IMG/VR virus record: IMGVR_UViG_3300037067_016568 | Coordinates: 1-64,000 of that record | Reading direction: 5' to 3' (one strand) | From: a virus | Lineage: Duplodnaviria; Caudoviricetes | Length of the DNA stretch: 64,000 nt | Part shown: in pieces, positions 182-48,808 of the stretch | Layout of the letters: every line of letters starts with the position of its first letter | How positions within the stretch are numbered: position 1 is the first letter of the stretch | The notes under the pieces: generated by a model | Seen by the model: the letters and a program-made list of their open reading frames with translations, nothing else | Told to the model about the DNA's origin: nothing | The model's database searches: none | Made by a program: the position numbers and the translations under genes

Positions 182-208
182 GTATTTTACAAACTAGGTA
201 ATTACAGG
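182..208 (+). repeat. dispersed 27-bp motif ending in CRISPR handle
   Basis: GTATTTTACAAACTAGGTAATTACAGG. Confidence 0.85.
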
Positions 209-507
209 GGATCATATCAGGAGGACACGAGATGGGAAAGACTGAAGACAACGTGATTTGTGCGGCCAATGATGATGCCAAAAAGATTGCTGATCTTGAG
301 GGCGAAACTTTTTTGGACGCCATAAGGCACCACAACAGGATACAGATCGTCCAACACTACGATCGCAAACTTCTACGTGACCTGGCTCATGAAGCTACTT
401 GCTTCGCATCCCTTTGTCGTCACGTTTGTGATTGGAGAAGTGAGCAAGCATTAGGTGGTCATATTGGTGGAACCAAGGAAAAGAAGACCGAAGTATAAAG
501 GCTACAA

Positions 508-552
508 GGGCGTCCTGTTCTTCTTGGATGGGACGCTCGTTTTCTTCTTGTT
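508..552 (+). terminator. putative intrinsic terminator
   Basis: GGGCGTCC...GGACGCTC stem followed by T-rich run after ORF 232..498. Confidence 0.45.
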
Positions 553-1106
553 TTTATTGTAGTCTAGCAACGTCGTACAACTAGAGACCTTTTCGAAAAA
601 CGCTAGAGTCCAACTATTTTCCTCTTAATATTAACGGAAACAAAATGAATAACGCAGTCTGCAACAAACCCTCACCAATGGTCGAAGCGATGAACGGAAT
701 CAGAGAGCGATTGGAAAAGCTCGACGAGGCGATTAACGTACTCTCAGATAAATTATCGCCTGTTAGATGTTCAACCCCGGCGGGGACCAAAGAGAAACCG
801 TCATCGTCGGCACCGTTGATTGGCAAGCTCGTTGAGATTTCTTACCGAATCGAAAGCTGCACGGTTGCCGTTCGGACGCTGACTAACGAGTTGCAGCTGT
901 AGTCCTCTTCAATTCTCTTTGAAGAGCCTGCTCAAGGTCGCATCGCACTTGGAAGCCCCGATGAAGGAACGGGGCTATCCATACCTCATATTTCCTATCC
1001 TCTCTCTTCCAGCCGCGTTCCTTCAACCATAATCTGCTAACTTCTTGAAAAATGCTCATGTCTATTGTAGTCTGGAACATCTGGGTGCTTAACCTCTTCT
1101 CGAAAG

Positions 1107-1328
1107 TTAGCGTTCTTTGGCTCCTAATTTTATCGCTAGTTTTCTTCTTCCCTCCGTTATGTCATAGTGCGGATGCCTAGGGTGGTCTTGAAAGTACGCC
1201 CTTCTTAATCCTAGTCGTAATGCGAACTTGTGTAGCTCTTCTAAAGTGTCTGCTGTGAGATGGCATGTAGAAGGGTATCTCCATTTCGAAGAACGCTCCG
1301 TTTGAAAGAGCTTATCAACGTAGACCAT
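1107..1328 (-). CDS. DUF4031 family protein
   Basis: MVYVD...CHL.ADT.EELH.FA.RLGL.R..FQ....HPHYDIT pattern typical of DUF4031. Confidence 0.75.
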   Translation of the reverse strand: MVYVDKLFQTERSSKWRYPSTCHLTADTLEELHKFALRLGLRRAYFQDHPRHPHYDITEGRRKLAIKLGAKER

Positions 1329-1496
1329 ATGGCCTCTTTTCGGAAATATTAACCGGAATCCTACGTTGTGATGCTCTCTGAAATACGTATTTGAAGAATA
1401 TGAAGATGGATTATAAAGAACTTCTAAAGAAATATATTGCTTGGGTAATCTATAAGGAAGGGACAGATCTATTGCCGCAAGACTTCTTTAGTGCTC

Positions 1497-2294: not shown

Positions 2295-2335
2295 TCAATA
2301 CGCCGAGGAGCGGCCAAAAGCAGGTGTTGAAAAAG

Positions 2336-2972: not shown

Positions 2973-3383
2973 TTATATCTCCTTATGAGTACATGTGATC
3001 AATGGTACGCTCTTTTCACAATGGAGAGGATCTTGGTGCCACACGCTATGCTTACCGTGTCCCTCTACCTGTGCCACAACCTGTCTGACAACGCATTGCA
3101 TATCCCAAGCAATCTTGTGTTGGGACGGTACTTTATTACTGTTGATGCCCATGGACCCGTTAGTTGGGATATGCAGTCCTGTTTTGATTTCTTTGCAGAG
3201 CTGCCTGACGTGCTCTATTTGATTTACATCATATATGTCATTCATCATGGCGATATTGGCAATCTCTTCTATCTGACCCATACCTATTCTTGCGAATAAG
3301 TCCATAGCGTTGATGAATACCCTGATATGGTCGTCATCGAGTTCTATAGTATATCTGCAGTCCTGTTTCATTTTCATTCCCAC
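2973..3383 (-). CDS. hypothetical protein
   Basis: 136-aa ORF in operon-like run. Confidence 0.55.
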   Translation of the reverse strand: MGMKMKQDCRYTIELDDDHIRVFINAMDLFARIGMGQIEEIANIAMMNDIYDVNQIEHVRQLCKEIKTGLHIPTNGSMGINSNKVPSQHKIAWDMQCVVRQVVAQVEGHGKHSVWHQDPLHCEKSVPLITCTHKEI

Positions 3384-3404: not shown

Positions 3405-3431
3405 GTATTTTACAAACTAGGTAACTACAGG
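3405..3431 (+). repeat. dispersed 27-bp motif ending in CRISPR handle
   Basis: GTATTTTACAAACTAGGTAACTACAGG. Confidence 0.85.
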
Positions 3432-3590: not shown

Positions 3591-6500
3591 CTATTCCGGA
3601 ATGGCCCAAACTGCTACTCCACCACTAACCCTCAGAATATAATCACCATCTGTGGTTGGTGCTCCTGGTATTCCTGAAGACACACCTGTTGCACCAGCTG
3701 CTCCCGAAGCACCAGGTGTGCCTGATGCTCCAGCAATTCCAGATGCTCCATCTAGTCCAGCAGGACCAGTTGCACCAGGATCTCCGCCACCAGGCCCCGT
3801 CGCGCCAGACGCTCCGGGAGGGCCAGAAGCTCCACCAGTCTCTCCTTGCGGGCCAGTTGCACCAGTATATCCTATTTCTCCTGTAGCACCGGGATCTCCT
3901 ATGCCAGAGGCACCGTCGATACCAGTGGCTCCTGTTAGACCGATAGCTCCTGTAGCTCCTGTGGCTCCTGTTGGACCTGTTGCTCCGGTAAATCCAACAG
4001 CTCCGGTGGCACCCTGTATTCCTGTAGCTCCAGACGCACCATCTATACCCGATGCACCTTGAATACCTGCACCGGTAGCACCAGTATATCCAGTAGCACC
4101 GGTGGCCCCTGTCTCACCTTGGGGGCCAGAGGCTCCGCCAGTCGGGCCTTGGGGACCGGTAGATCCTGTCGCACCATCTATTCCTGTTGCACCAGGTTCA
4201 CCTGCACCTGTAGCTCCTATTTCACCTTGTGGGCCTGTAGATCCTGTGGCACCAGTATATCCAGTTGCTCCAGCAGATCCATATAAACCCGTTGCACCTG
4301 TTGCTCCAGCTGTTCCTGTAGCACCGGGAGGACCAGAAGCACCTCCAGTAGGACCTTGAGGACCGGTAGCACCAGTTTCTCCTTGTGGTCCAGAAGCTCC
4401 TCCGGTATCACCTTGAGGGCCTGTAGCACCTGAAGCACCATCTTGTCCTGCTGACCCCGTTGCTCCGCTAGCACCTCTAGGACCTGTTGACCCTGTTGCA
4501 CCAGTAGAACCAGTGTAACCAGTAGCCCCTATAGGGCCACCGCTTGGACCGGTTGCCCCTGTAAGACCCGTTGCACCTTCTATACCAGTGGCACCAGAAG
4601 CACCTCGAATACCCGACGCCCCATCTACCCCCTGGGTACCTGTAGCTCCCGTCGCTCCTGGATCTCCCTGTGGGCCTGAAGCTCCTCCAGGATCACCTTG
4701 AGGACCAGTGGCACCACTAGCTCCATCGGGGCCGGTAGCTCCTGTAGCACCATCTGATCCCACATAGCCAGAGGCACCAACAGGACCAGTAGATCCGGTT
4801 GCACCTGTTTCGCCTTGTGGCCCGGAAGCTCCGCCAGGATCTCCTTGAGGACCTGTAGCACCAGTTGCGCCATCCTCGCCTTGTGGTCCTGTGGCTCCGG
4901 GAGGGCCAGAAGCTCCACCAGTCTCTCCCTGTGGTCCAGTCGCACCATCTAAGCCGGTTGCACCGGTAGCCCCATCTGATCCTATATAACCTGAAGCACC
5001 TGGTAATCCTGTAGCTCCAGCTACACCATCTAAGCCGGTTGCACCGGTAGCCCCATCTGATCCTATATAGCCTGAAGCACCAGCTACACCAGTGGCTCCG
5101 CTAGCACCAGATGCTCCGGGAGGGCCAGAAGCTCCACCAGTCTCTCCTTGCGGTCCGGTTGCGCCAGTATACCCGGTTGCACCAGTAGCCCCGTCAGCTC
5201 CTGTTTCTCCTTGCGTTCCCGTTGCTCCACTAGCTCCATCGACGCCGGTAGCTCCTGGATCGCCTACACCTGAGGCACCTTGAACACCGGTTGCTCCTGT
5301 GGCTCCACTGGCCCCGTCCGGCCCTTGAGGGCCAGTAGCACCAGTATCACCTATGCCACTTGCCCCCTGCACGCCGGTTGCACCGCTAGCTCCACTAGCC
5401 CCATCTAAACCTGTGGCACCAGTATCACCTATTCCAGAAGCGCCTTGAACGCCTGTGGCCCCAGAAGCTCCACTGGCTCCATCTATACCAGTTGCACCGG
5501 TAAGACCTATTTCACCTTGTGGGCCGGTAGATCCTTCAGCACCCGTCGCCCCAGAAGCTCCGCTGGCTCCATCAATACCAGTGGCTCCCGAATCACCTAC
5601 CCCTGAAGCACCCTGAACGCCGGTTGCCCCAGATGCACCTGAGGCTCCATCTATACCAGTGGCACCGGTAGGACCTATTTCTCCCTGAGTACCAGTAGCA
5701 CCAGATGCACCTGAGGCTCCATCTATACCAGTGGCACCCGGATCGCCTACACCTGAGGCACCTTGAACACCGGTTGCTCCTGAAGCTCCGCTGGCTCCGT
5801 CTGGACCCTGAAGGCCAGTAGCGCCAGTGTCGCCTATACCACTTGCTCCCTGCACACCGGTTGCACCTGAAGCCCCTGAAGCTCCAAGTTCTCCTTGCGG
5901 ACCAGAAGAACCCTGGATGCCTGTAGCTCCAACATCACCTTGAACACCAGTAGCTCCTGAGGCTCCGCTAGCTCCTCTAACGCCTGTAGCACCAGTTAGT
6001 CCAGTTGCACCAGTATAACCAGTAGCTCCAGTAGTTCCGGTAGAAGATCCGCTTGCTCCTTGTGGCCCTGTAGCTCCAATATCGCCTTGAATACCGGTGG
6101 CTCCTGAAGCTCCAGAGGCACCAGTAGCACCAATCTCTCCCTGTGGGCCTGTAGCTCCTGATGCTCCGGGAGGGCCAGAAGCTCCACCAGTCTCTCCTTG
6201 CGGGCCAGTTGCACCAGTATACCCCGTCGCACCAGTTGATCCAGTAAAACCAGTGGCTCCTGAGGCACCACTAGCTCCGTAGGGACCAATTAGGCCAGTT
6301 GCGCCAGTTAGACCAGTGGCACCTGAAGCTCCGCTGGCTCCGTCGATACCGGTGGCACCCATCTCCCCGGTATCGCCCTTCAGACCAGTTGCACCAGTTT
6401 CACCGGTGGCACCTGGAATCCCTGTGGCTCCACTAGCACCAGACGCTCCGGGAGGGCCAGAAGCTCCACCAGTCTCTCCTTGAGGGCCGGTAGCTCCTTC

Positions 6501-9500
6501 GATACCTGTTGCACCAGTCTCGCCTGTTGCACCAATTTCGCCCTGCGGGCCTGTCGCACCCGAAGCCCCGCTAGCTCCGTCGATACCTGTAGCTCCTGGA
6601 TCTCCAATTCCACTAGCACCTTGAACACCGGTTGCTCCTGAAGCTCCGCTGGCTCCATCTATACCAATGGCACCAGTGGCACCTACCCCTGAGGCACCCT
6701 GGACACCAGTAGCACCGCTAGCACCGCTAGCACCAGAAATACCCTGTAATCCAGTTGCGCCTGTTAGACCAACGCCGCTGGCACCCTGTACTCCAGTCGC
6801 CCCTGAGGCACCAGAAGCTCCATCGGCACCCGTAGCACCTATACCACTAGCCCCTTGAACGCCGGTAGCGCCGGAAGCACCTGAGGCTCCATCTATACCA
6901 GTTGCGCCGGTAAGACCTGTTTCTCCCTGAGCACCGGTAGCTCCATCTATGCCAGTAGCACCAGACGCTCCGGGAGGGCCAGAAGCTCCACCAGTCTCTC
7001 CTTGAGGGCCGGTCGCACCGCTGGCTCCATCAATACCAGTGGCCCCAACTTCTCCCTGCGGGCCTGTTGAACCTGTAGCACCAATTAAACCTGTGACTCC
7101 TGTGGCACCAGTAAGGCCAATAGCACCCGTAGCACCTCTGGTTCCAGATGCTCCCTGCACACCCGTAGCACCCGAAGCACCACTGGCACCAGCTACACCA
7201 GAAGCTCCACCTGTTTCCCCTTGCGGGCCAGTTGCGCCTTGAACGCCTGTAGCACCTGAAGCACCACTTGCACCTGATATTCCTGAAGCTCCACTAGCAC
7301 CAGATGCTCCGGGAGGGCCGGAAGCTCCACCAGTTGGACCTTGCGGACCAGTGGCACCGGTTGCGCCAGGCTCTCCCTGTGGTCCTGATGCACCGATTCC
7401 GCTAGCGCCCTTTACACCAGTAGCACCTGAAGCACCCTTAGCACCCGTGGCTCCAGTAAGACCAGAAGCACCTATATATCCAGATGCTCCGAATATACCT
7501 GTAGACCCAGTAGCACCAGCAGTACCGGTAGCACCAATTGGGCCACCACTAGGGCCGGTCGCACCCGTAGGTCCTAGTGGCCCAGTTGAGCCGGTGGCAC
7601 CAATTGGACCTGTTGAACCTGTTGCACCAGTAGAACCGGTGAGACCAGAGGCACCCTGAGGGCCTGATGCACCGCCCGTTGGACCTGTGGCTCCTGTATA
7701 TCCTGATGCACCGGTGGCACCCCCAATACCTGTTGCTCCAGTTAGGCCAGTGGCTCCAGTATAACCAGTAGCACCTATTGGACCACCACTGGGACCTGTA
7801 GCACCGCTGGCACCAATTGGGCCTGTTGAGCCAGTAGCACCTATTGGACCACCACTTGGGCCAGTTGCTCCAGTTTCACCTTGTGGGCCTGTTGAACCAT
7901 TTATTCCATTGGTACCTGATGCACCCGTCACACCAGATGCTCCAGTTATGCCAGATGCTCCACGTATTCCTGTTGCACCTGTTGCCCCAGACGGGCCAGA
8001 AGCTCCTCCAGGGTCTCCCTGTGGTCCTGTTGCACCGCTAGCACCATCATCTCCTGCAGCTCCTGTGGCACCTCTAGGACCAGTAGCACCAGGAAACCCA
8101 ATACCAGTAGCCCCCGTTGCTCCAGTCGGTCCTCCAGCCGGGCCGGTAGCACCAGCGGGACCGGTCGAGCCAGTTGCTCCTGTAGCCCCGGATATAGCTT
8201 GTGGAGTCCAAGAAAGATGGCCTGCACCATCAGTTCGCAAGATATAGCCAGTAGCACCATCTGAGCTAGGCCATCGAAGATTGTCTATATAGACATATGT
8301 ACCAGTACCACTGACACCTAACCTCAAATTAGATTCTATAGCGTTAACATTTAAATCAGAACCACCAACTGAATGAATAGTATTGACTTGAAGTCCACCA
8401 ACTTCATCATATTGAAAAACGTTATCATCTATGAGGCGGCCATGTGTCCCGACAAATGGAATCCGACCAGTAACCAACATCGTTCCATCATTTAAAACGA
8501 ATCCTTTACGGGCACCGTCAGTAGTAATTGTAAAATAGAGATCATCATAGGTAAATTCTATTGTCCCTGCTTCTGGTGTAGCCAAAACGCTACCAGTTGT
8601 TAATTTAATAGGAGCAGTCCCAGGAGCTGCTTCACCTGCTGCTAAGTGTATCCTCGCGGTAGGATCATAAATGCCGACTCCTAGCTGTCGACAACTAGCT
8701 GTCGCACTATCGTTAGTTCGCGACCCTTCTAAGATGTTATAATAATTAGTAAGGAGGCGCTGCTCATATTCAGGAGTTCCACCATTGTCAATTAATCTGA
8801 CAGTACCAAGCCAACGATGTCCTTTATAATCACCAGACGTAACATATACTGGCGTCCCATTCAATGTTGCAAGGCCGTCTGCGTCTACTTGTATCCAATA
8901 TCCTGCTGCTAAATCATCGGCGAACACGCCAGACGTGTGGCTAATAATGCAAGCGTAGACAATAGAAGCATTTTTAGCCCTGGTGCCGACGCCATATGGA
9001 TGGCTCGTTTCCCAATCCTCATAGCGAATTACCGACAAAGGGTCATAAGCGACAAATTTAATTTCACCAATAGTTGTATACCAACGCTTGACAGAATCTT
9101 CTATAGCCCACACAAGATCTGTAACTTCAAAAACTTCGATTTTATAATAGGAATATGCGATATTATTGCTAAATGTGAAATATTCTGACCATACATTTAC
9201 ATCGCTAGGCGGATCTATATTCTCTTTTTCATCTAAGAGATCCCAGTTGCTACCATCATTAGAAGCCCATATTCTCCACTTTCGCGGCAGTGATGATGGT
9301 ATGTCGCCTTGAACTATTGGATTACCATATACACTGAGTAGTGATCTTGCTTTCCACGCATACTTGTTAATAGCTTGTTTATTACTGTCTCCAAAGTAAT
9401 ATATAATCCAAACTTCATGGGTCCACGGATCACCAGGTTCCCATCCTGCTCCTCGGCCAACTTCAACTGCCCATCCTAGATTAGATGTGTTATGATTAAA

Positions 9501-10145
9501 TGCCTGCCATCCGAAAAACCTATAGACTCCCGTACCATAGGGAAGCTCAGCATGTGAGCTTTCGGTAACGACATTCGGTGTTGGCACATCGAAGTCGGTC
9601 ATAGCGATAGTGCAAGTGTCCGTTCCTGGATTAGACTTGCCATCAGCAGGCGTAAACTTCCACGGTGCGAATTCTAATTCAAAAGAAGTAGCAGTTCTTA
9701 AGAAGCCGAAAACGTCATATATCCTGTCATCTGTCAGAGTAACACCGTTCATATCAGTAGCGGTGTTTAATGCAGATGGAGGTGTATCTACATAGATAAG
9801 ATCCCATAACTCAGAATATTGATTATAAAGGCGTATCTGATTTGATTGAACAAAATGCCAACTTAGTGTAGTGGAATTAAGGACCTTTAAATTGCCGTCG
9901 ACAACGTTGCCACCAGGACCAGTAGCCCCTGTAGCACCAGTTGCCCCTGTGTATCCCGTCGCGCCTGTAGCTCCCGTATAGCCGGTAGCACCCGTAGCAC
10001 CAGAAAGACCAGTGATACCAGATGCACCTGTCAGGCCAGTTGCACCAGCTACACCAGTTGCTCCCGTTAAACCAGTTGCACCAGGAGCACCTGAGGCACC
10101 ACCACTTGCACCGCCCCATATAGGAAGAACGCTGGTTGTAAACAT
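3591..10145 (-). CDS. collagen-like fibre protein with discoidin/F5-8 type C-like domain
   Basis: ~1500 aa of G-X-Y (GAT/GAS/GPQ) triplets; N-terminal [14 protein letters not shown]...Y.YYKI motif; [13 protein letters not shown] tail-fibre-like motif. Confidence 0.85.
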
Positions 10146-12160: not shown

Positions 12161-12532
12161 GTGGCTAAAGCCAAAAGAACGTCCAAAACGATTGGACAAA
12201 CCCATGTTGTGTTCGTTATTGACAGCGAGTTTTGTGCGACACTCGGCGAATTCCTAGTCAAGCGTGGTGACTCGAACAAAGAACTCGTCGATTTCGGTCA
12301 CAAACTCACCAATCTGGTGCCGGTCCAGAATTACCGGATTGACCTCAACCCAGCCAAAATCAAAGCGGCCATCAAAAGGAAGGCCAAGATAGAGGCAAAG
12401 CAGAAAGAAGCCGATCGTGGTCAGCTAGTCAAGGAAGCCAAACGATTACACAAGAAAGGCGAGTCGTATCGAGCAATCGGCAAAACACTCGGCGTCTCTG
12501 CCATCACCGTCTCGCGTTACTGCAACAAGTAA
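12161..12532 (+). CDS. protein with C-terminal HTH
   Basis: GESYRAIGKTLGVSAITVSRY. Confidence 0.65.
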   Translation: MAKAKRTSKTIGQTHVVFVIDSEFCATLGEFLVKRGDSNKELVDFGHKLTNLVPVQNYRIDLNPAKIKAAIKRKAKIEAKQKEADRGQLVKEAKRLHKKGESYRAIGKTLGVSAITVSRYCNK

Positions 12533-12768
12533 TGAACAAGTTTCGCATCTGGTGGACACATCCATCATACGATGAAATGTTCTACGTCCCTGTCTCAGGG
12601 CCATCCGAGGCAAAGAGAATACTCGGCGTACTCGCTGACTATGACAATCATCTAGTCAGCAACGGTCTTATTGGTGATATTAGCAATATAAGCGGGTTAG
12701 AAGAATTTGATGAAGATTCCTGGGTCGAATGGGAGTCTAATGAAAGCTGTGATATATGGGGGCACTGA
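12532..12768 (+). CDS. P22 gp17-like (superinfection-exclusion-related family) protein
   Basis: FRIWW...F.VPV....EA..IL..LADYD......N.SGLE.F....W.EW pattern resembles the gp17 family (from memory). Confidence 0.55.
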   Translation: MNKFRIWWTHPSYDEMFYVPVSGPSEAKRILGVLADYDNHLVSNGLIGDISNISGLEEFDEDSWVEWESNESCDIWGH

Positions 12769-12781: not shown

Positions 12782-12808
12782 CCTGTAATTACCTAGTTTG
12801 TAAAATAC
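12782..12808 (-). repeat. dispersed 27-bp motif ending in CRISPR handle
   Basis: plus CCTGTAATTACCTAGTTTGTAAAATAC. Confidence 0.85.
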
Positions 12809-13614: not shown

Positions 13615-14073
13615 TCATTGTAGTTTCCAGGAATGCTTTTCTTCGTTCCATCGGTAGAGTACTTGCTCAGATCCGTCTAAATTAAACCTGATAATACAAG
13701 GATTAACACCACATGGAACAGATTCTAATATTTCATGAAGAGATGGCGTAGGACCGTCATACATCCCAAATGAGCCGGGCTTCTCTTCATAACTGGCTGC
13801 ATATATAACTTCGTTGCGCTTCTCTACAGTAGGTGGGCCATAGATAGAAGGCGTATAGCTCTCTGGTAATTCATTCGGTTCGTCTGTAATCACATCCATG
13901 GGAACTATATAAACCACAGGTTTAAATATTCGGTCAGCAACCGCTTCTCTAAATCTCTCGATCCGCTTTTCAGCGATCTTATAAGTTGCAAATACGACGG
14001 TATTATAGATTCTGCGTGTTCGCTCTAAAGCGAATGTGTCTTTACCTTCAGCTTGTAGCTGGAAGACCCTCAC
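13615..14073 (-). CDS. hypothetical protein
   Basis: 152-aa ORF. Confidence 0.45.
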   Translation of the reverse strand: MRVFQLQAEGKDTFALERTRRIYNTVVFATYKIAEKRIERFREAVADRIFKPVVYIVPMDVITDEPNELPESYTPSIYGPPTVEKRNEVIYAASYEEKPGSFGMYDGPTPSLHEILESVPCGVNPCIIRFNLDGSEQVLYRWNEEKHSWKLQ

Positions 14074-14292
14074 CAGACACCAATACTCTCTCGCCTGTCG
14101 TCAATTTCCTATACGCCGTCTCAAATACTTCTTTGGGCGACCATGATCTGTAGCCATCAGGATAAACGACTAAATAGCCTGGACGTGTTTCACGATTATC
14201 CACATTCTCATTCTCTCCGACTGAAGGAACGTGCATTCGTCCATTGGTTCAGCACTTACAATCTTGCAACCAACATATTGGTCCATGGTCAT
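14048..14292 (-). pseudogene. frameshifted conserved phage protein (Y.G.K.V.AEPM...GYLVVYPDGY.SWSPK family)
   Basis: N-part MDQYVGCKIVSAEPM from 14292/14286 is in a different frame from C-part RPGYLVVYPDGYRSWSPKEVFETAY. Confidence 0.6.
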
Positions 14293-14303: not shown

Positions 14304-14330
14304 GTATTTTATAAACTAGGTAACTACAGG
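14304..14330 (+). repeat. dispersed 27-bp motif ending in CRISPR handle
   Basis: GTATTTTATAAACTAGGTAACTACAGG. Confidence 0.85.
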
Positions 14331-18568: not shown

Positions 18569-18606
18569 AGAGTACCGTTTGTTCCATGTAACTACAGGAC
18601 TACAAG
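18566..18606 (+). repeat. solo degenerate CRISPR repeat plus 8-nt tail
   Basis: TGAAGAGTACCGTTTGTTCCATGTAACTACAGG vs repeat TGGAGAATAGCGTTCGTTCCCAGGTAACTACAGG (5 mismatches, 1 gap), followed by ACTACAAG. Confidence 0.7.
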
Positions 18607-18609
18607 AAA

Positions 18610-18987
18610 ATGGACCCGTGCCCATATTGTGGTGCGAAAGTCGCTTTGAAAGATTCATCCATAGTCTATGGTAAATCATATGGTAAGATGTGGATATGTT
18701 CCAATTGGCCGAAATGCGATGCCTACGTAGGTTGCCAACGAGGTTCTGATAAACCATTAGGACGATTGGCCAATCCAGAACTCAGATATTGGAAGAAGCA
18801 AGCACACTCCAAATTTGACAAGCTCTGGCATAGTGGCGAAATGAGTCGTGCAGAAGCATATTTGTGGTTGTCTCGTTCGTTAGACACACCGCAAGACGAA
18901 TGCCATATAGGTATGTTCGATATAGACAGATGCAAAGCTGTTTGTGAGGCTGTTCAGAAATATTATCAATCGCGGGGCAATGCATGA
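18610..18987 (+). CDS. DUF3268 family zinc-finger protein
   Basis: CPYCG...W.C.....CDAYVGC....PLGRLA...AH..FD.LW...AY.WL...CHIGMFD. Confidence 0.85.
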   Translation: MDPCPYCGAKVALKDSSIVYGKSYGKMWICSNWPKCDAYVGCQRGSDKPLGRLANPELRYWKKQAHSKFDKLWHSGEMSRAEAYLWLSRSLDTPQDECHIGMFDIDRCKAVCEAVQKYYQSRGNA

Positions 18988-31640: not shown

Positions 31641-32255
31641 CCTGTAGCTGCTTGGAAACGAACGCTATTCTCCATTTCGCGGCGATCAGCTTGCCCGACG
31701 TCCCGCCCTGTAGTTACCTGGGAACGAACGCTATTCTCCATTTTGATATTTCAAATAATTCCAGCGATTCTACCTGTAGTTACCTGGGAACGAACGCTAT
31801 TCTCCATTAGTCGAGCAACTCTTGGACGAGCCGTTGGTCCTGTAGTTACCTGGGAACGAACGCTATTCTCCGTTTTATTCCAAGGCTGCTGATTGTCAAT
31901 GGTCCTGTAGTTACCTGGGAACGAACGCTATTCTCCATTTCGGTCTTCTACGGCATGCCTGTAGTTACCTGGGAACGAACGCTATTCTCCATTCCAATAG
32001 GCGGCGCGACCGGCGATGCCAACCCTGTAGTTACCTGGGAACGAACGCTATTCTCCATTCTATTCCGACCACTCCAGATGCAAGTTCTCCTGTAGTTACC
32101 TGGGAACGAACGCTATTCTCCATTGATGCCGACCATTCGCTTTCGCAAGAGAACCTGTAGTTACCTGGGAACGAACGCTATTCTCCATTGCCGCTCATCA
32201 GGGATGATGTTTTTGGGTACCTGTAGTTACCTGGGAACGAACGCTATTCTCCATT
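31641..32255 (-). CRISPR. CRISPR array 1: 10 repeats (36 bp), 9 spacers (18-30 bp)
   Basis: plus-strand repeat CCTGTAGTTACCTGGGAACGAACGCTATTCTCCATT at 31641 (degenerate), 31707, 31773, 31839, 31904, 31958, 32024, 32089, 32154, 32220. Confidence 0.95.
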
Positions 32256-32894: not shown

Positions 32895-33440
32895 TTAATT
32901 AGCTTCGAGTTCGGCAATCCGTGTTTGAAGTTCGGCAATCCGTGTTTGAAGTTCGGCAATTCGTGCTCGAAGCGCCTCATTCTCCGCTTCCAGGGTCTTA
33001 ATACGCGCCAAAAGCTGGTCCTGGACCGCCTGCATTGACGCCTTGATTTTGCGAGCTTCCTTATATGGATCAGCTGGCTTGGCCCGGCGACGACTACGTG
33101 GGGCGTCGGATTTCGTTTTGGCGAGCATGCCGTTATACATGTCGCGAAGCTTACCATTCTTCCATTGATATTCTTCCGGATAGTGCTTGAGCATCATCCG
33201 TAATTCGGAGAAGGTCAAGCAAAGGTCGATGACATACTCATCCAAGATGGCCAAGAGTTTGTTGTTGTCCAAGATCTCATTGTCGGCCCGAAAATCTGGA
33301 TCTTCATAGACGCTGTTCAGCAGAGTTGTCCGCCGATAGGCGTTGTGGCCGCTTGACTGCTGTAGCTTCCGGACTTGCTGTAAGAGCTTCTTGTACTGCT
33401 TTTCGCAGCGTGGCTGGGTTGGTGTGGTCGACCTCATCAA
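32895..33440 (-). CDS. hypothetical protein with C-terminal coiled coil
   Basis: GGAGA RBS; heptad IAELQTR repeats encoded by a 21-bp tandem repeat at 32909-32960. Confidence 0.6.
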   Translation of the reverse strand: MMRSTTPTQPRCEKQYKKLLQQVRKLQQSSGHNAYRRTTLLNSVYEDPDFRADNEILDNNKLLAILDEYVIDLCLTFSELRMMLKHYPEEYQWKNGKLRDMYNGMLAKTKSDAPRSRRRAKPADPYKEARKIKASMQAVQDQLLARIKTLEAENEALRARIAELQTRIAELQTRIAELEAN

Positions 33441-33568
33441 TAGTTCTCCTTAGTCTTTTATGAAAAGCTGATAGTTGCGCACATTGACGACAACAAAATT
33501 TCTTGTTGCCGTTCAATGGCGTCTTACATATTGGACATTCCCCCTGTCCTGTAGTCCTGGCCTGTAGT

Positions 33569-33806
33569 CCTGTAGTTACCTGGGAACGAACGCTATTCTC
33601 CATTTTCGGCATCGGTGATCTCCCTGTAGTCCTGTAGTTACCTGGGAACGAACGCTATTCTCCATTTGCGGTTCTGTTCAGCGAGGAGGCTGTGGCCCTG
33701 TAGTCCTGTAGTTACCTGGGAACGAACGCTATTCTCTATTGCGACGTGCCATTACCGAATGCGATCTATGCCTGTAGTTACCTGGGAACAAACGTAATCC
33801 CACATT
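33569..33806 (-). CRISPR. CRISPR array 2: 4 repeats, 3 spacers
   Basis: repeats at 33569, 33631, 33705, 33771 (last one divergent in its distal half); extra CCTGTAGT octamers before three of the repeats. Confidence 0.9.
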
Positions 33807-34457: not shown

Positions 34458-35600
34458 TTATCTGTTGATTGTTACGTCGATATCGATCTTATTACATGCC
34501 CGTTGGATCAACGATTGCATTTGTCGCCAATCCCATCGAGTCGTTTCAGTGTTGCCAATGCGTCCTGCATATTCTAAATAGTAATCCGCAGGAGGAGCAA
34601 AGATAACAAGATGACCGATGCCATTTGTTGCCAGTAATCTTGTCACATCATTGGCAAGGTGGGTGCTCCAGGTTTTGATGAAATCACGCCACCGCCGCTC
34701 ATATTTCGCCTTGTCTGCAGCCGAAATATATTTCCTGGTCTTCTTACTCTCTTGAATATCCAAGGTATTTCGCGTGTGTTCAACATCCTCGCCGCGACGA
34801 AGGCGGAATATGGTTTTACCATTGAATCGGAAGGAGAATGGGCGACGTTGCGCCGCTAACAGAAATGCCGTCTTATTCTTGTCAAGCGGTACTTTCACCT
34901 TGGGAATAGAATGGCAAGGATAAGCAATTAATCTACCGTCGCGTTCCTTCAAGTCGAGTCCCTTTAAATCCCATTCACCCGCTGCAATTTTCCACAGCAT
35001 ATCGCGGACAGAATGTAGCCTATAGCTTTTGGTCTTAATGATGAATGTCATCAAACCATAGCCGTCGACGTTGACCTCAAGCTTCCAATCTTCATTCTTG
35101 CTCTGCGGAACGATGATTCGGCAGTCACGTTTATGAAACGGAATGCTACTTCGTTGAGACGACTGTAGGAGACCTCCTCGGCCCAAAAGGACTGTTATCC
35201 AGCGAGGATAAGCCGACTTATACCCATGTTTCTGCAGTATTCTCAACGCTTTCTCGGTTGCTAGCTTACAGTGCTTGTTCATCGAGGGATATGTAGCAGA
35301 CATGATTTCGTCAAGCTGCTGAGCCATTTCGGTACTGCATGGATCGACAGGGCACCGCGTACGGGGGCCAACGCGAGTCTCAGGCTCGTAAAGCCAGCGG
35401 CGATCTTGTTCTGCCCATTCACGAACGAGAAGATGATTGCCAGCTTCAAAATGAATTCGCAACCATGCTGACATAAAATCGTTGACGATTCTCTGAATAT
35501 CAGAAGCAAGAGTGCCGATGTACTTTTTGTGTGACTTATAGTCATCGTCACCGCCAAGTAAACTGATTCGCTTGTTCTTAACAACTCGAAAGTCGGCCAT
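34458..35600 (-). CDS. Cas12f/TnpB-like protein B, nuclease-dead and C-terminally truncated
   Basis: paralog of 35735..37096 (NDF.S.W...H.EAG, CPV.P.S..MA, RW...L.G.G, VP.S.N..WKL, LWKI..GE, WDW..MQ); RuvC-I site reads TAFLLAA, RuvC-II reads HLVIFAP. Confidence 0.75.
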   Translation of the reverse strand: MADFRVVKNKRISLLGGDDDYKSHKKYIGTLASDIQRIVNDFMSAWLRIHFEAGNHLLVREWAEQDRRWLYEPETRVGPRTRCPVDPCSTEMAQQLDEIMSATYPSMNKHCKLATEKALRILQKHGYKSAYPRWITVLLGRGGLLQSSQRSSIPFHKRDCRIIVPQSKNEDWKLEVNVDGYGLMTFIIKTKSYRLHSVRDMLWKIAAGEWDLKGLDLKERDGRLIAYPCHSIPKVKVPLDKNKTAFLLAAQRRPFSFRFNGKTIFRLRRGEDVEHTRNTLDIQESKKTRKYISAADKAKYERRWRDFIKTWSTHLANDVTRLLATNGIGHLVIFAPPADYYLEYAGRIGNTETTRWDWRQMQSLIQRACNKIDIDVTINR

Positions 35601-35613: not shown

Positions 35614-35698
35614 GGTTAAAAAAGGTAACTCTGGCGAGAGCTAACACGGTACGGAATGCCCGCAGCTATTCTCGCCTTCGAGACGTACAGGACGCCTC
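35614..35698 (-). ncRNA. putative tracrRNA, copy 1
   Basis: two hairpins, split anti-repeat (CCUGU loop + AGUUACCU), U6 tail; TGCTATAAG extended -10 about 20 nt upstream (35717-35725). Confidence 0.75.
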
Positions 35699-35734
35699 AA
35701 TTAGTGATTCTGCAAACTTATAGCACAAAAACAA

Positions 35735-37096
35735 TTATCGATTAACTTCTTTTTTACGGGGCTTACCTCCTTGCCTAGCGATTACTTTCATCCCGGCTGC
35801 TGCTCCAACCGCTTCCAACTGCTGCTGCATGTGGTACCAATCCCAGGCCGTCGATTCATTACGGCCAATTTTTCCGACATTAGAGAGATAACGAGTATCT
35901 CGCCATTTACCGGTTGGCTGATATGTTACCAGTTGACCAACGCCCGCTTTAACACAGCGACCTATAACCTCTGCGGCCCAAGTGTTGTTGAAGGTTTTGG
36001 TCTGATTACGCCAATTGCGTTCCGACTTTCGCCGCCAGTTATGGACTTTACGACCATGGTTTTTACGCGCACTAGATGCATATTTGTACGATTCGCTTTT
36101 ACCGAACCGTTGAAGCGTCAAAGAACGACGAGCATGTTTAATGTGCCTGCAGCTTCGCAGTTTCATATGTGTCTTACCATCAATGCGAAGCATCACGCCA
36201 TGATATCGACCACCTGATACGACAGCCGTTTTCTTGCTATCAGAGGGGGCAACCACACCGGGCATCAAATAGCAGATATCCGCATACCACTTGCCGGTGT
36301 TTTCACACTTAATGATCTGCGAAGTGCCGAAAATGTATTCGCCAGACGTAATTTTCCACAACACCTTGCGAATAGGTGCTAAATGACGCCCGCCAGTCCG
36401 AAGTTTGAAAACCATGGGGCGTAGAGTTCTTTGGCCATCTACTTTTTCGTAACGAACAATCAACTTCCAAGGGTCATTATTACTTTTAGGGACGACGAAG
36501 TTGCTGTTAGCGGTGTAGAATGGAACCGGTTGTGGTCTGGAAAATTGTGAATATTCTCCATATCCACATAGGATCATAAACCAGCGCTTATATTTAGACT
36601 TCGTGGCCGGTGTGGAGAGGAGCGTACTACTAAGCCGCCTAGAAACAATACCAATCGGTTTAGTCCCTAAATTGCAGTGTTGAGTAGTCAGGCGTTTATA
36701 GATCTCATTCGCCATCTTGTTAGAATATGGCTGAACGGGGCATTTTGCACGTGGAGGGATTTTCACGTCGAAAGAGGGGAGTAACTCCTTCTTTCCTTTT
36801 CGCTTCTGAGCTTTCTGAGCCTTGTCCAATTCGCCGTATTTCTGTGCCCATTCCTTATCTTCTTGTATCCATTTACGAAGAGCAGTGGGAGAGCCAGCTT
36901 CAAGATGCAAGCTAAACCACTGACTATGAAAATCATTTGCGATTTGCTGCATTTGAAGCGATATCTTGGCGAGACGTTCTTTTTCCTCTGCAAAGCCGTC
37001 GTCAATACCACATAGCTGGACGCGAATAATCTTCGTAAGTCCTTCTGGCTTCTTTTTACGTGGTTTCTTTTCTGCCGGTTTCTTCAATTTACTCAC
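35735..37096 (-). CDS. Cas12f-like protein A, nuclease-dead and C-terminally truncated
   Basis: KITSGEY.FGTSQII.....KWY..I.Y, KYASSARKNHGRK, WDWYHMQQQL...AAGMKVI align by eye with AsCas12f1-type RILSGEY..SASQII.....KWYLNISY, KYAGGARGGHGRD, WTYYDLQQKI...EEAGIKVI; GIDLG is replaced by VVSGG, MEDL by TYQP; no Zn finger or RuvC-III. Confidence 0.8.
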   Translation of the reverse strand: MSKLKKPAEKKPRKKKPEGLTKIIRVQLCGIDDGFAEEKERLAKISLQMQQIANDFHSQWFSLHLEAGSPTALRKWIQEDKEWAQKYGELDKAQKAQKRKGKKELLPSFDVKIPPRAKCPVQPYSNKMANEIYKRLTTQHCNLGTKPIGIVSRRLSSTLLSTPATKSKYKRWFMILCGYGEYSQFSRPQPVPFYTANSNFVVPKSNNDPWKLIVRYEKVDGQRTLRPMVFKLRTGGRHLAPIRKVLWKITSGEYIFGTSQIIKCENTGKWYADICYLMPGVVAPSDSKKTAVVSGGRYHGVMLRIDGKTHMKLRSCRHIKHARRSLTLQRFGKSESYKYASSARKNHGRKVHNWRRKSERNWRNQTKTFNNTWAAEVIGRCVKAGVGQLVTYQPTGKWRDTRYLSNVGKIGRNESTAWDWYHMQQQLEAVGAAAGMKVIARQGGKPRKKEVNR

Positions 37097-37143: not shown

Positions 37144-37552
37144 CCTGTAGTCACCTGGGAACGAACGCTATTCAACATTCACATCGGGCTTGTAGTCAAG
37201 CCTGTAGTTACCTGGGAACGAACGCTATTCAACATTATTGAGACAACTTAATCAATGATGTCCTGTAGTCACCTGGGAACGAACGCTATTCAACATTTAA
37301 AACTGTCCCGTCCCGTTTTGATATAGCCTGTAGTCACCTGGGAACGAACGCTATTCAACATTTCAGAAGCTGTGAAAGCTTCATCTTGGCACGCCTGTAG
37401 TTACCTGGGAACGAACGCTATTCAACATTCCTCGGCGATTTCGTCGGCTGTAATTGGCACCTGTAGTCACCTGGGAACGAACGCTATTCAACATTTCCCT
37501 TCGTCGTGATAATCAGCCTGTAGTCACCTGGGAACGAACGCTATTCAACATT
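37144..37552 (-). CRISPR. CRISPR array 3: 7 repeats (variant CCTGTAGT(C/T)ACCTGGGAACGAACGCTATTCAACATT), 6 spacers (21-31 bp)
   Basis: repeats at 37144, 37201, 37262, 37327, 37394, 37460, 37517. Confidence 0.95.
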
Positions 37553-37564
37553 ACGCTAACGGGT

Positions 37565-37648
37565 GGTTAAAAAAGTAACTCTGGCGAGAGCTAACACGGT
37601 ACGGAATGCCCGCAGCTATTCTCGCCTTCGAGACGTACAGGACGCCTC
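37565..37648 (-). ncRNA. putative tracrRNA, copy 2
   Basis: identical to 35614..35698 apart from a 1-nt deletion near the U-tract; ends 12 nt upstream of the first repeat of array 3. Confidence 0.75.
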
Positions 37649-37735
37649 TATTTGGTGATCATAGTTTATCTGGACTGTTTTAGCATCACATTAATAGGTA
37701 GTTAACTTCGATTAATCTCTTGTGAAGCCTGTAGT

Positions 37736-37914
37736 CCTGTAGTTACCTGGGAACGAACGCTATTCTCCATTTCGTCTCCATTTACATTTTGAACGAACGC
37801 TATTCTCCATTGACGCTAAGGGCCACGTTATCGGAGCACCTGTAGTTACCTGGGAACGAACGCTATTCTCCATTCGGCTGTTATGAAAAGATATTGCAGA
37901 TCCTCCTGTAGTTA
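37736..37914 (-). CRISPR. CRISPR array 4: 2 full and 2 partial repeats, 3 spacers
   Basis: full repeats at 37736 and 37839; partial 37791-37811; handle-only CCTGTAGTTA at 37905-37914. Confidence 0.85.
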
Positions 37915-46200: not shown

Positions 46201-47442
46201 CCAGGTTTAAATATCCAACTGCCGCTAATGCACTTTCCGGGGACACGATTTGCCACCATTAATAAGTTAGAATCAGATTTTACACATCCCAAGTGGGCCG
46301 CTAAACCATGGGATGACAAATATAGCACAAGTTGCGGGCCTTATAATCAATCTTGTAAAAAACCAACATATCTCGACGCCAGATTAGTAGAGGGCACAGA
46401 TGGAGACACTCATTTGGTGTTCGATGATGTTCCTTTTACAATTGCTGCCAACGGCCTGCATCCAGACATACCAAGTTTTGGATCTCATCTGATTGATACA
46501 CAAAGCATATTCCACTCCGATGATGTAGTGCACGCTATCTATAGCACGCAGCCAATTGGAAATCCGGCTATATCATTAGAAAATATGTATCCTCCATCAC
46601 GAACATACACAACAGGCAAGGCTGATTATACGGTAGGTGGCGTCGAATGGATGTTCGGATATGTTTTTGATAGCATTCCGACAATCACTATTGGCCTAGA
46701 ATTGAAAAACTTAGCAGACAATATTTATACATTGTCTGCTAAAATCATAAGCGTTTCTGCGACTGCTGTGGTCATTAAAGTCTATAAAGCAGTCTTAGAT
46801 CTACCCGCTGATATCGTTTTTAGTGAATGCGCAGCTGGCGATGTTGTAGTCCACATTATGGCATCAGTGGCCGACACCATTATTAATACTACTGATTCGC
46901 CATTGTTCTCAACAGCTGCGTTATGCCACGACACTGTGCCATACTATATTGATTATATAGACGGCTATCCTGCGTCTTTTGGATATCAGACATATGAAGA
47001 TGATGACTTTGATCGCGACGGGACCAGAACAGAATTATTTAATGAATTGGATATTGATAGGTCCGTCCCGACAGGGACAGAAGTATTATTCTATTTCATA
47101 AGTGGAATACAATATCAAAAGGGATATCGCGTAGATTGCAACTGCGCAGCCTTGACTTGCGATGGCGGTACATCACCAACAGTAGAAATAAATGTCTTAC
47201 AATGCTCTATCGACAATTATAGGACAGACGCTCTGCCTTTTGAATTTTCTGATGGCATTGTCCGATATGGTTATGATTATAACCCCGATCAGGTGATAAC
47301 TGATATAACCCTAGATGCGCAAGAAGAAATTGGAGTCCATGATTTGGCTTTTGACGGTCAAATCATATGGGACGACGAGCGACAAGAATATCGTCAAATA
47401 AACATGCTCGAACTCTGTACTGGATTCCCAACTTGCATATAA
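43225..47442 (+). CDS. large virion structural protein, baseplate/tail protein I-like
   Basis: FVPYLSFLLG...LR.VVRL..LKGSRNAI..LF.LFG motif of P2 gpI-like baseplate proteins. Confidence 0.65.
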   Translation: MQTNPHIPVFLLLPVNNNRTAYRPFNLPMVLMETDRRDLSGASIPNSGVIVQNCDCGGDVECECMGVKTTTCNEYCNGAAIRIIIEDVPHKALVAGQIPIGLMSPDSEIYAKNVSMSEMIDRMIHPELQTFFRVTGIDSDGKQILTQIEYTEAVGGDLMQYTTASGSVGNLTYYPTANYYDLSDIAIETEHLPPDWYNLTYQAEYYARVESKSTPGQLNCIDPTRKATSIYRFRLNHPGQVMQETVNLTPAPYMTNDQKSVDTTIEFYRPFTDALQDIFDEQYLLGSVNWVDFITPQFVPYLSFLLGLDLPYFPQSLYSLRKTMLRNVVRLQQLKGSRNAIYDLFELFGYIIYINKLYWSSDGKRLIRPGEKLPPAYADQEIQIEKVCQIEPVLAGYNKSGFGELTVPLLYRPTYTEELQGIVNVVEGGDVIINAYLIRKNAYGSGTVSTTKTTELVGTNTTFLTDFSIGDTITVSGETARVVATITDDTHLTVTTAFQNTTTDISYTYISKTYKKLEEISIASQECEMPIIPTDGLDSWSQVVIDKSASYANPDEDVSTGDQPPFIHTGVRIDRKANLLYLTFNGAIQFDDKYGLQGVNAPNSEMLLYAFAIYSHEELAVPDQIKNYYSNRFDIQLLTKDGEQIGGDVLEFLIDYLFKIKAFHSLLHTLIYHANLNETYQVTPFCVGGDLEQRYDIDAGKLQVPPAILPQVPVGECSVDPSDLGYKPEDIALREKILTNLPEEFQAWVDVDWYMKIKPAIGATGPIYIERDVTQIGDERLAPTPAKDNTDCKFTYRGQDRLVPADTEEIDDVVYDPTPFANDQSVASQSNMHLSPITNGVHGVFYPTGAEATTNSDKAEYGPYEIELSINPNTFCELDGISDYCYKGRVEDEILHKMTLVSTEQYQASLCQLSFGHGIYYAFPATSELTNSIQGAALKQSYNANLPPDNNSFLGRLLRAFDTVQGENIHYTDRPYLTESVSGEQNLLALQRPGLNIQLPLMHFPGTRFATINKLESDFTHPKWAAKPWDDKYSTSCGPYNQSCKKPTYLDARLVEGTDGDTHLVFDDVPFTIAANGLHPDIPSFGSHLIDTQSIFHSDDVVHAIYSTQPIGNPAISLENMYPPSRTYTTGKADYTVGGVEWMFGYVFDSIPTITIGLELKNLADNIYTLSAKIISVSATAVVIKVYKAVLDLPADIVFSECAAGDVVVHIMASVADTIINTTDSPLFSTAALCHDTVPYYIDYIDGYPASFGYQTYEDDDFDRDGTRTELFNELDIDRSVPTGTEVLFYFISGIQYQKGYRVDCNCAALTCDGGTSPTVEINVLQCSIDNYRTDALPFEFSDGIVRYGYDYNPDQVITDITLDAQEEIGVHDLAFDGQIIWDDERQEYRQINMLELCTGFPTCI

Positions 47443-47487
47443 TCAGGAATCCAGTACAGGCAAATTTACAGTATTGGAGGACATCAA

Positions 47488-47964
47488 ATGGCAGCTGCAA
47501 ATAGCGTAGTCGGTTTTCTTTCCGGTCTGGTTTCTTACACCAACGGCGATGTTGGCAGTTTCCACTGTCAAATTGAATCACCAGATCTCATCAGCACCCT
47601 TGTGTGGAGTGTTGATGAAGATGACAGCAAAATTGTCACCGGCGAGATGTACAATGTAGATTGGTACTACCCACTTGCCAATCTTATTGCCGGAATCGGG
47701 CTGTCAGACGATTTCTCCTGGACATCTGGTGTCCCCGCGAATCCTCGCACAATCAGTGATTTGGTCATCCACTTGAATATGATCTTCACGTTGGATGATG
47801 GCACGCAGCAACCGGTCTCGGCCACATACGAAAGAGGCACCAGGACTTATCATACTCCTGGTATGCCTCTGTCAACACTGCCGAGCAACATTGACACCTT
47901 GCTCACCGCACTCACTGCGATGATAGACAAGGCTGTCACAGCTTGCTCCTTCGAACCCACCTAA
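47488..47964 (+). CDS. hypothetical (likely structural) protein
   Basis: GGAGG RBS, 158 aa. Confidence 0.55.
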   Translation: MAAANSVVGFLSGLVSYTNGDVGSFHCQIESPDLISTLVWSVDEDDSKIVTGEMYNVDWYYPLANLIAGIGLSDDFSWTSGVPANPRTISDLVIHLNMIFTLDDGTQQPVSATYERGTRTYHTPGMPLSTLPSNIDTLLTALTAMIDKAVTACSFEPT

Positions 47965-48353
47965 ACGCGGACTCGAATAACATTAACGTCGTGGCAGCCG
48001 TCCTTCAACACGATTTGGCCATCTTGCACTTCGCAAATCGATCGGACGAATTCTAAAGCTTCGCCTTCGAAGTCGAGATCGGTGTTCATCTTGCCGTTTC
48101 GAAGTGGAACGACGAAATGTGGATGACCAGGATGCAATGTCTGCAGCAGAGATGCAGTCACATCACGTACCTCTGCTGGTGGTAAGTTGCCAACTTCCAC
48201 ATACATAACTGTCCGAATTGGTGTGCTCATATCATCTTTCTCAGTTGATCGAGCGAAAGCTTCAGGCGATATTTGGGGTATGTCGGTCTTGGGTACTGTA
48301 TCCTTAACTGCTGGCGGCACTGCCTGACATCCCTTGCATCTGCATTTGTCCAT
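47961..48353 (-). CDS. hypothetical protein
   Basis: GGAG RBS; YVEVGNLPPAEV motif. Confidence 0.55.
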   Translation of the reverse strand: MDKCRCKGCQAVPPAVKDTVPKTDIPQISPEAFARSTEKDDMSTPIRTVMYVEVGNLPPAEVRDVTASLLQTLHPGHPHFVVPLRNGKMNTDLDFEGEALEFVRSICEVQDGQIVLKDGCHDVNVIRVRV

Positions 48354-48781
48354 TGTCGTTCTCCATTATTTTCAAAAGTTACCACTTACAATAAAATACG
48401 TATTTCAATACTGACAACCAACAGAGCAAACCATAGGAGGTGTGCCATTAAATCCGCATCGCAATTCCCTGTAAATCTAATAATTCCCGTCACCACAACA
48501 GAAGAAGAACAAATAGTTGAAAAAATTCTGTCCGATGCTCTACCCAATTACGATTTCTTGTCCAAAATCTATTATGAAAACCCGGACGAGACTCAACGGG
48601 CACGTCTCTTGATAAATGGAGAAGAAGTCAAAAGAGGAACCGTTGAACAAATGAAAGAAGCTTTCACTTTACAATCGAGCATCAACTCTAAAGCTAATAT
48701 TATCGTTCAAGAGTGGCAAAAACAGCCTTTATCAAATAAATCAGCCGGATTCGTGACTGTTCAGTCTAGAATAGTCAAGGT

Positions 48782-48808
48782 ATATTTTACAAACTAGGTA
48801 ACTACAGG
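48782..48808 (+). repeat. dispersed 27-bp motif ending in CRISPR handle
   Basis: ATATTTTACAAACTAGGTAACTACAGG. Confidence 0.85.

Follow-up and report, generated by a model that had tools for sequence, protein, structure and literature searches.

A 27-bp intergenic motif ending in a CRISPR-repeat handle in a huge phage and in unrelated phages: a possible mobile promoter cassette

Why should the end of a CRISPR repeat stand alone, outside any array, at the boundaries of phage genes? The question is raised by a 27-bp motif, the 27-mer, in the first 64 kb (hereafter the window) of a 184,768-bp virus record, IMG/VR IMGVR_UViG_3300037067_016568, whose completeness is estimated by CheckV at 51%. The last 13 nt of the motif, here called the handle, are exactly the 3′ end of the 36-nt repeat of the CRISPR arrays in the same genome, and the other half of the motif is AT-rich. 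The reading that we tentatively favour, with a probability of about 0.4, is that the 27-mer may be a small, horizontally mobile intergenic cassette of two joined modules, which would act mainly as a DNA-level promoter for the gene on its AT-rich side.

The 27-mer is present in five copies in the window, at 182..208 (+), 3405..3431 (+), 12782..12808 (−), 14304..14330 (+) and 48782..48808 (+). The original prediction had listed the same five places and the same repeat identity, and needs correction only in the copy at 48782, where the first base is A and not G. It had also proposed a scan of the whole genome: the remaining 120 kb of the record hold no further copy, and no degenerate copy was found in the whole record at up to 7 mismatches. 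The handle alone, at up to one mismatch, gave 28 matches against 0.05 expected from shuffled sequences, distributed over the arrays (n = 22), the 27-mers (n = 5) and a solo degenerate repeat (18586, within 18570..18598, +) whose handle lies 12 nt upstream of a zinc-ribbon open reading frame (ORF) at 18610-18987. The first 23 of the 36 repeat bases show no identity to the motif, and the 27-mer would fall short of the full-repeat score that a published finder of solitary repeats requires. The copies are single, carry a partial repeat and lie 1.5-34 kb apart, unlike the full-length and regularly spaced repeats of an array, and no repeat adjoins any of them. An Rfam search of the sequence returned only two tRNAs, both at other loci.

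The arrays lie on the minus strand. Array 1 (31641..32255) holds 10 repeats with the handle as their 3′ end, array 2 (33569..33806) holds four, three of which are followed by an extra ACTACAGG, and array 3, together with a mini-array, occupies 37144..37912. A fourth array, at 123.7-124.0k of the record (123672-124054), has repeats ending in the same 13 nt. The spacers are 18-38 nt long and several open with an extra copy of the last 8 handle or repeat bases. No cas1, cas2 or cas4 was found among the ORFs scanned with Pfam; the arrays may expand via recombination instead of Cas1-Cas2. As a separate observation, a repeat that is either terminal or solo is followed directly by a small ORF with a zinc-ribbon pattern (CPxC ... 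CxxC) at three loci, 18570-18987 (+), 33304-33612 (−) and about 1040-1180 of the metagenome stretch L008, and the sole in-frame ATG of the ORF at 33.5k falls within the repeat.

A predicted and conserved element of about 85 nt with a U-run, resembling a trans-activating CRISPR RNA (tracr), was identified in two copies on the minus strand, at 37566..37652 and 35614..35702 (approximate ends). It is present in three copies in one relative of the phage, G001 (122 kb), and in four in another, G002 (364 kb, complete). The element has a CCUGU loop and a AGAGUUAC tail that are complementary to the handle, followed by the U-run, and so has at sequence level the make-up of a tracrRNA with an anti-repeat. 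Its tail reads UUAC where the repeats read GUAA (GUGA in array 3, giving a G-U wobble) and UCAC where the repeats of the relatives read GUGA; this one compensatory change, tail U to C with repeat A to G, supports the pairing of handle and tracr. By this predicted pairing the part of the repeat that pairs with the tracr is formed by these 13 nt, as had been claimed, and the identity, with both boundaries at the predicted limits of tracr complementarity, is well past chance. Also as claimed, conservation stops at the boundary between repeat and spacer: in the 14 independent copies described below it ends at the last G of the handle, with one copy carrying an extra ACTACAGG after it. The variable positions of the 27-mer show transitions only, three of them in the AT half and one in the handle, where the C/T variant is compatible with wobble pairing to the tracr. 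All 14 copies have the A variant of the handle, the commonest in the arrays of the window.

Between the arrays are encoded, in tandem, P0001 (453 aa, 35735..37096, −) and its paralog P0002 (380 aa, 34458..35600, −). Neither has a Pfam match, a tblastn search with P0001 against 50,697 GenBank phage records gave no match, and just eight relatives of the family were found in databases, each of them on a large (huge-phage-like) contig. With a 10-sequence alignment as input, AlphaFold gave a model (mean predicted local distance difference test score 67) that was matched by Foldseek to Cas12f structures with an E value of 1e-16 (AsCas12f), and the family profile matches Cas12f1 chains at sequence level (E 2e-13). 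The column of the RuvC-I Asp holds A or G, that of the RuvC-II Glu holds Q in P0001-type proteins and A in P0002, and the family ends ahead of the zinc finger, RuvC-III and its third Asp. Because the RuvC Asp and Glu are replaced and the zinc finger and third Asp are missing, P0001 and P0002 are, to judge from their residues, truncated and nuclease-dead derivatives of Cas12f.

Scans for the exact pattern located the motif on two contigs of IMG/VR and on nine stretches of metagenome, which together come from three samples. Two of the nine stretches are near-identical to the window, and duplicates were removed before counting. This left 14 independent copies: five in the window, two each in L007 and L009, one each in L010, L012, L015 and L016, and one, the second there, in L017 (here L017b). 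At least nine independent copies thus lie beyond the window, on metagenome or viral contigs. The carrier contigs share only 27-81 nt around the motif with the window and with each other. L007, with two copies, encodes a terminase, portal, protease and capsid module, and its capsid protein has no relative in the complete 364-kb genome of G002. The motif also comes and goes between close variants, and in L016 it stands in place of the upstream region of a gene that the genome of the window conserves without it. Two side observations concern single carriers. In L007 7745-7795 the second copy, L007b, lies between perfect 10-bp direct repeats, and its handle strand continues through 14 nt into a bidirectional intrinsic terminator. 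In L016 the motif is adjacent to an endonuclease and a Mom-like/homing-endonuclease gene, 6451-7845 (−), a segment absent from the syntenic region 129.1-133.7k of our record.

One of these carriers is linked to the huge phage in another way. The first spacer of the mini-array (37875-37904, −) matches L006 339-368 and L007 1165-1194, a small phage of the same samples, at 29 of 30 positions, so that the motif is common to a huge phage and to an unrelated phage that the CRISPR system of the former appears to target. The crRNA (CRISPR RNA) would be antisense to the mRNA, its target being placed 22 nt ahead of an ORF's stop codon and shortly upstream of the gene that follows, and the protospacer has no T-rich 5′ flank. 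When all spacers were compared by local BLAST, and in two scans of the collections, no further protospacer beyond this match came up, and no spacer in four genomes is aimed at the AT half.

The arrangement of the copies relative to genes follows one pattern. Ten copies have co-directional genes on both sides, and in 10 of the 10 the handle strand runs antisense to these genes (two-sided binomial, approximately 0.002). An eleventh, L017b, has its non-handle strand facing a co-directional gene start as well, within a divergent gap; it is followed after 20 nt by a small gene whose orientation is opposite to that in the window and which therefore needs a promoter of its own. On the non-handle strand of these 11 copies the next start is 11-110 nt away (11-40 nt at seven sites), and the upstream stop is found from −7 to 159 nt before the motif, with one outlier at 519 nt. 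The 27-mer is accordingly upstream of a gene start in matching orientation in 11 of the 14 copies, two being ambiguous and that at 48782 lying between convergent genes. At 3405 the reverse complement of the motif lies 21 nt before ORF 2973-3383 (−) and 159 nt after the stop of a 2184-aa ORF. The copy at 12782 follows ORF 12532-12768 (+), from whose stop it is separated by 13 nt, and precedes by 40 nt the ATG at 12849; both this copy and that at 3405 are antisense to their two neighbours. The copy at 14304, which has a T variant in its AT half, lies in reverse complement 11 nt before the ATG at 14292 (−), and has the motif with a further 13 nt in common with L012/L013. In L007b and L012 the order is hairpin, motif, Shine-Dalgarno (SD) sequence and ATG.

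Two copies depart from the pattern. The handle strand of the copy at 182 faces the SD and ATG of ORF 232-498 at a distance of 23 nt, and its other side runs off the contig end. The copy at 48782 lies between the convergent stops of ORF 48495-48797 (+) and a 917-aa ORF (−). At both sites the handle strand is co-directional with an adjacent gene, so that read-through could cross it. The claim that the motif is always intergenic or at gene ends held on the ORF maps except for the first copy in L009, which lies inside a doubtful ORF; three neighbouring ORFs, those ending at 14324 and 48797 and the L007 terminase, have their stop codon inside the motif. We noticed also that a conserved phage gene at 14048-14292 (−) appears split over two frames (ORFs of 40 and 62 aa), by a frameshift or an assembly error.

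The favoured promoter reading starts from the AT half, which holds a near-symmetric −10 box at motif positions 2-8, TATTTT on the handle strand and TAAAAT on the other; read directly, the motif has −11A and −7T reciprocally on both strands, at positions 3 and 7, and the second L009 copy and L015 have a natural A-to-G variant at position 3. From this box an mRNA would be initiated on the non-handle strand about 5 nt outside the AT end, so that at most sites the leader would measure roughly 6-35 nt. The divergent start, on the handle strand, is predicted at motif position 14/15, of which position 15 is the first base of the handle; in the window this start would fall at 195/196, 3418/3419, 12794/12795 on the minus strand, 14317/14318 and 48795/48796. 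Each cassette would then be the source of an antisense RNA as well, with a ready-made handle at its start and the 3′ end of the upstream gene behind it. Such an RNA, if made, could base-pair with the tracr-like RNA and be taken up by the dead Cas12f-like protein, and might serve as a guide in the huge phage and as a decoy in the small phages that its system targets. We infer the promoter activity in both directions, both start sites and the loading into the protein from the letters of the DNA. The orientation bias and the short distances to starts find an explanation in this cassette reading, as do the sharing on the AT side, the L017 copy in a divergent gap, the copy at 182 and the exact placement of the handle. 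Sharing beyond the motif is confined to the AT-rich side, as expected for a promoter with its leader: subsets of copies have 6-54 further nt in common, with 13 nt for 14304 and L012, 18 nt for L010 and L015, and 54 nt including a hairpin for the second L009 copy and L015. As an observation in its own right, the motif with this 54-nt hairpin-forming leader makes an 81-nt module that is 96% identical between L009 2270-2350 and L015 6756-6836, on contigs otherwise unrelated, and the leader is present alone in L012 (1852-1893).

Which polymerase might read such a promoter was addressed by protein searches. No T7-like RNA polymerase and no sigma-70 region 2 was found in our record, in G001 or in the complete G002, the T7-family search, silent in control genomes as well, being a weak one. 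Since no phage RNA polymerase or sigma factor was found, a promoter for a phage-specific polymerase was ruled against, and any promoter must be read by the polymerase of the host. An origin as a host repeat or host promoter was rejected, no match to a 23-mer of the motif being present among 185,579 species genomes. When the last 7 bases were dropped, the resulting 20-mer had two matches, at chance level, in Bacteroidota metagenome-assembled genomes, one of them in a plain chromosomal gltBD region. SD-like hexamers are enriched upstream of the phage genes, which argues against a host among the Bacteroidota. The hexamers AAATAC and AGATAC are also enriched upstream of genes, about 5-fold; a general phage promoter consensus was discarded as an explanation, no extended consensus emerging around them.

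A number of findings weigh against the 27-mer being a promoter in the first place. It has neither a −35 box nor a TG or extended −10, its flanks at the −35 position are not conserved, and a consensus scan of the gene-facing strand scored only the copy at 12782. The promoter upstream of the tracr-like RNA is of another type, TGn-TAYAAT, with only about 12 conserved bases. An ordinary class of host promoters would show many degenerate copies, whereas the 27-mer has none, and the genes downstream are mixed (helicase, portal, head protease and proteins of no known function), which misfits a temporal promoter class. The handles at 48782 and at 9.9k and 137.4k of G002 lie between convergent genes, with no gene to serve, and a terminator follows the handle strand at one site only, L007b, of 16. 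Both start sites are predictions, and the gene maps were drawn with a greedy ORF picker and a simple codon score instead of a trained gene finder. Promoter function alone would explain neither the 7 nt conserved from box to handle nor a handle that is near-invariant in phages without a visible Cas12f. The original prediction had offered as its alternative a promoter or operator read from the other strand; this fits most sites, misfits 48782 and leaves the identity of the handle without explanation.

The two relatives indicate how the handles might come and go. Both G001 and G002 have arrays, the tracr-like RNA and the effector, and both are devoid of the 27-mer. G001 carries one diverged variant, at 36709, with its handle strand 38 nt upstream of an SD and ATG. 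In G002 there are at least four solitary units in which a segment of about 30 nt forming a GGATCC hairpin precedes the handle, at 9924, 107110, 137404 and 273647 (L028, L035, L030 and L029, respectively), and in two of these the upstream pentamer CCUGU or CCUAU covaries with the last five handle bases ACAGG or AUAGG. A bare handle in G002, at 197819, is found 8 nt before a start codon. The solitary handles show the G variant of the repeats of their own genomes in the one G001 case and in three of the four G002 cases checked. For the G002 handle at 273654, the orthologous intergenic gap in the genome of the window is empty. Conversely, at the site of copy 48782 the stop codons overlap in G002 and the window has a discrete insertion of 24-27 bp; by its score the ORF 48495-48797 (+) is coding, and its G002 orthologue is 102 aa long. 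The G002 orthologues of the loci at 3405, 12782 and 14304 are in rearranged contexts that allow no clean comparison with an empty site. Because G001 and G002 carry solitary handles of their own, such handles are a recurrent, fast-turnover feature of this phage family, of which the 27-mer is one version. Two further observations concern the layout of these units: three of the four G002 hairpin-handle units abut the stop codon of an opposite-strand gene, and at 11440-11600 of L018, which belongs to G001, the tail of a tracr-like copy is fused directly to a truncated handle and a spacer, a fusion that resembles a natural single-guide RNA.

The original prediction had supposed that transcripts crossing the motif become guides independent of the arrays, and a selected function of this kind is possible, if doubtful, to us. 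The handle strand would be transcribed from the AT-half box or by read-through, the 13-nt handle would pair with the tracr and the flank would serve as spacer, yielding guides for the dead Cas12f in the huge phage and, in the targeted small phages, RNA decoys that would occupy the effector in the manner of RNA anti-CRISPRs (Racrs). The identity bounded at the tracr-pairing limits, with its only variant wobble-compatible, speaks for this, as do the −10-like hexamer 5-7 nt before the first handle base in the 27-mer, in G001 36709 and in G002 197819 and 9931, the occurrence of viral solitary repeat units just downstream of predicted promoters (PMC10651486), the hairpin-handle units of G002 with their covarying pentamers, the tracr-handle-spacer fusion of G001, the motif in a phage matched by a spacer of the window, the 48782 handle within the 3′ end of a co-directional gene and the terminator 14 nt past the handle of L007b. 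Against it stands the orientation, since a small-RNA gene has no obvious reason to be antisense at 10 of 10 co-directional sites. Nor do 15 of the 16 sites have a terminator on the handle strand, only 13 of the 36 repeat bases are present, the 5′ flank of the sole known protospacer differs from the handle end, and the 27-mer is missing from G001 and G002, which own the Cas12f system, while occurring in phages with no sign of it. With a 16-nt seed at up to 3 mismatches and with short-word BLAST, the would-be guides match their own locus only, and therefore lack the second partial match near a protospacer-adjacent motif (PAM) that a crRNA-like regulator has; a 14-nt match of the 48782 flank inside the P0002 gene was dismissed as a trans target, being at chance level. 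Two parts of the original proposal fared worse. Guides against motif-less alleles find no support at the sole empty allele, that of G002, which is about 60% identical to the would-be guide, a weak test with so distant a relative. The likeness to TnpB omegaRNA breaks down, as no scaffold or tracr-like sequence and no tnpB-like ORF lies next to any 27-mer. A bolder form, in which the 27-mer would be a minimal self-promoted solo crRNA gene, traded among phages that share a host, giving guides against the 3′ ends of own and rival genes and, in targeted phages, an RNA anti-CRISPR against the CRISPR system of another phage, we consider speculative and rather unlikely.

The same orientation data could be taken to mean that what counts is the complement. 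Read-through mRNAs would carry a 13-nt complement of the handle that mimics the anti-repeat of the tracr, and would act as a crRNA sponge, for counter-defence in the targeted phages and as a buffer in the huge phage, or as processing sites. Such an anti-handle would explain both the orientation bias and the convergent cases, the complement lying 0-6 nt from the co-directional stop at 48782, G002 9931 and G002 273654, and also why the identity has its exact limits and why a targeted phage carries the motif. It gives no role, however, to the equally conserved AT half; the hairpin before the motif in L007b and L012 would keep read-through low, the copy at 182 has no co-directional gene upstream and a 13-bp duplex is a weak competitor for the tracr. 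We know of no precedent for it and regard it as very improbable. Selfish or neutral DNA is a further candidate, namely a scar of recombination or integration, or else a mini-element, passing from phage to phage in co-infections, which took its 13 nt from an array by recombination and would have no role as RNA or promoter. The clean insertion against the empty site in G002, the 10-bp direct repeat around L007b, the identical copies on unrelated contigs without degenerate ones, the variation among close variants and the homing-endonuclease-like neighbour in L016 that the genome of the window lacks are all in its favour. A bias of 10 in 10, on the other hand, argues for selection on function, the copies are all intact with transitions only, the flanking duplication is found at one copy in 14, and no terminal inverted repeats and no associated transposase or recombinase were found, so that the motif does not resemble a miniature inverted-repeat transposable element or an insertion sequence. 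An origin of this kind is in our view unlikely.

What follows for biology depends on whether the handle strand is expressed and its RNA loaded. If so, three things would be seen for the first time: a nuclease-dead type V system that depends on a tracr and receives guides needing neither an array nor processing, the same unit used as a decoy in conflict between phages and not between phage and host, and the divergent start of a promoter co-opted for a guide RNA. If the 27-mer is a promoter cassette only, it would still illustrate clearly how a regulatory module of 27 bp moves between unrelated phages, one site being filled and one empty; the copied crRNA handle is then the link left without explanation, which a full account must cover. 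As a side observation on the window, the very large ORFs 3591-10145 (−, 2184 aa), 20639-27682 (−, 2347 aa) and 48809-51562 (−, 917 aa) contain G+C-rich repetitive stretches with a local GC content of up to 59%. The two largest encode collagen-like Gly-X-Y repeats and the 917-aa ORF a Ser/Pro-rich run, and similar Gly-X-Y repeats are encoded in L007.

How does the 27-mer compare with known systems? The viral solitary repeat units or RNA anti-CRISPRs (Racrs; PMC10651486), which lie immediately downstream of predicted promoters, are like it in being lone stretches of CRISPR-repeat sequence in phage intergenic DNA, with no adjacent cas genes and a promoter-like box upstream, and in that one carrier phage is itself targeted by a matching CRISPR system. 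The 27-mer differs from them in having, out of 36 repeat bases, no more than the last 13, which form the tracr-pairing stretch without the hairpin, in a matching system that belongs to another phage and not to a bacterium, with the phage that owns the system holding five copies, and in a repeat-sense strand that is systematically antisense to its neighbours. Bidirectional promoters of the sigma-70 type have reciprocal −11A/−7T and starts 18 bp apart, and their divergent RNA is often a non-coding antisense (Warman et al. 2021 via PMC10268837; PMC12825309). The 27-mer shares with them the reciprocal −11A/−7T, one predicted start facing a gene and a divergent one antisense to the gene upstream. 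It departs from them in the conservation of all 27 bp, in the missing −35 and TG, in the identical copies in unrelated phages and in a predicted divergent start that coincides with a crRNA handle.

The guides of dead Cas12f with sigma-E, and those of TldR, have been proposed to have arisen from array repeats, and no tracr was found for them (PMC13472631). A catalytically dead Cas12f-like effector and guide units outside regular arrays are common to both; here, in contrast, a search for a sigma factor gene found none, the tracr-like RNA is a separate element, and the 27-mer has no scaffold of its own and no genomic target beyond its own flank. CreA/CreR, the crlRNAs, scaRNA and the long tracrRNA resemble the motif in being degenerate or partial repeats outside an array that could direct an effector to a regulatory site. 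CreR, the crlRNAs and scaRNA have, however, a partly matching, PAM-adjacent target elsewhere, whereas the flanks of the 27-mer have no second genomic match. T4-type phages are said to contain promoter-stem-loop cassettes, reportedly described by Arbiol and colleagues in 2010 as short conserved intergenic modules at the borders of variable genes that mediate shuffling between phages. These come close as short, conserved, promoter-bearing intergenic modules; the 27-mer has no conserved stem-loop, spans unrelated phages and carries CRISPR-repeat sequence. From all these known kinds the 27-mer stands apart by the comparisons made here: it takes only the predicted tracr-pairing 13 nt of a repeat, it joins them to a −10 box that is symmetric, its copies in unrelated phages are identical, and its matching CRISPR system is borne by a phage.

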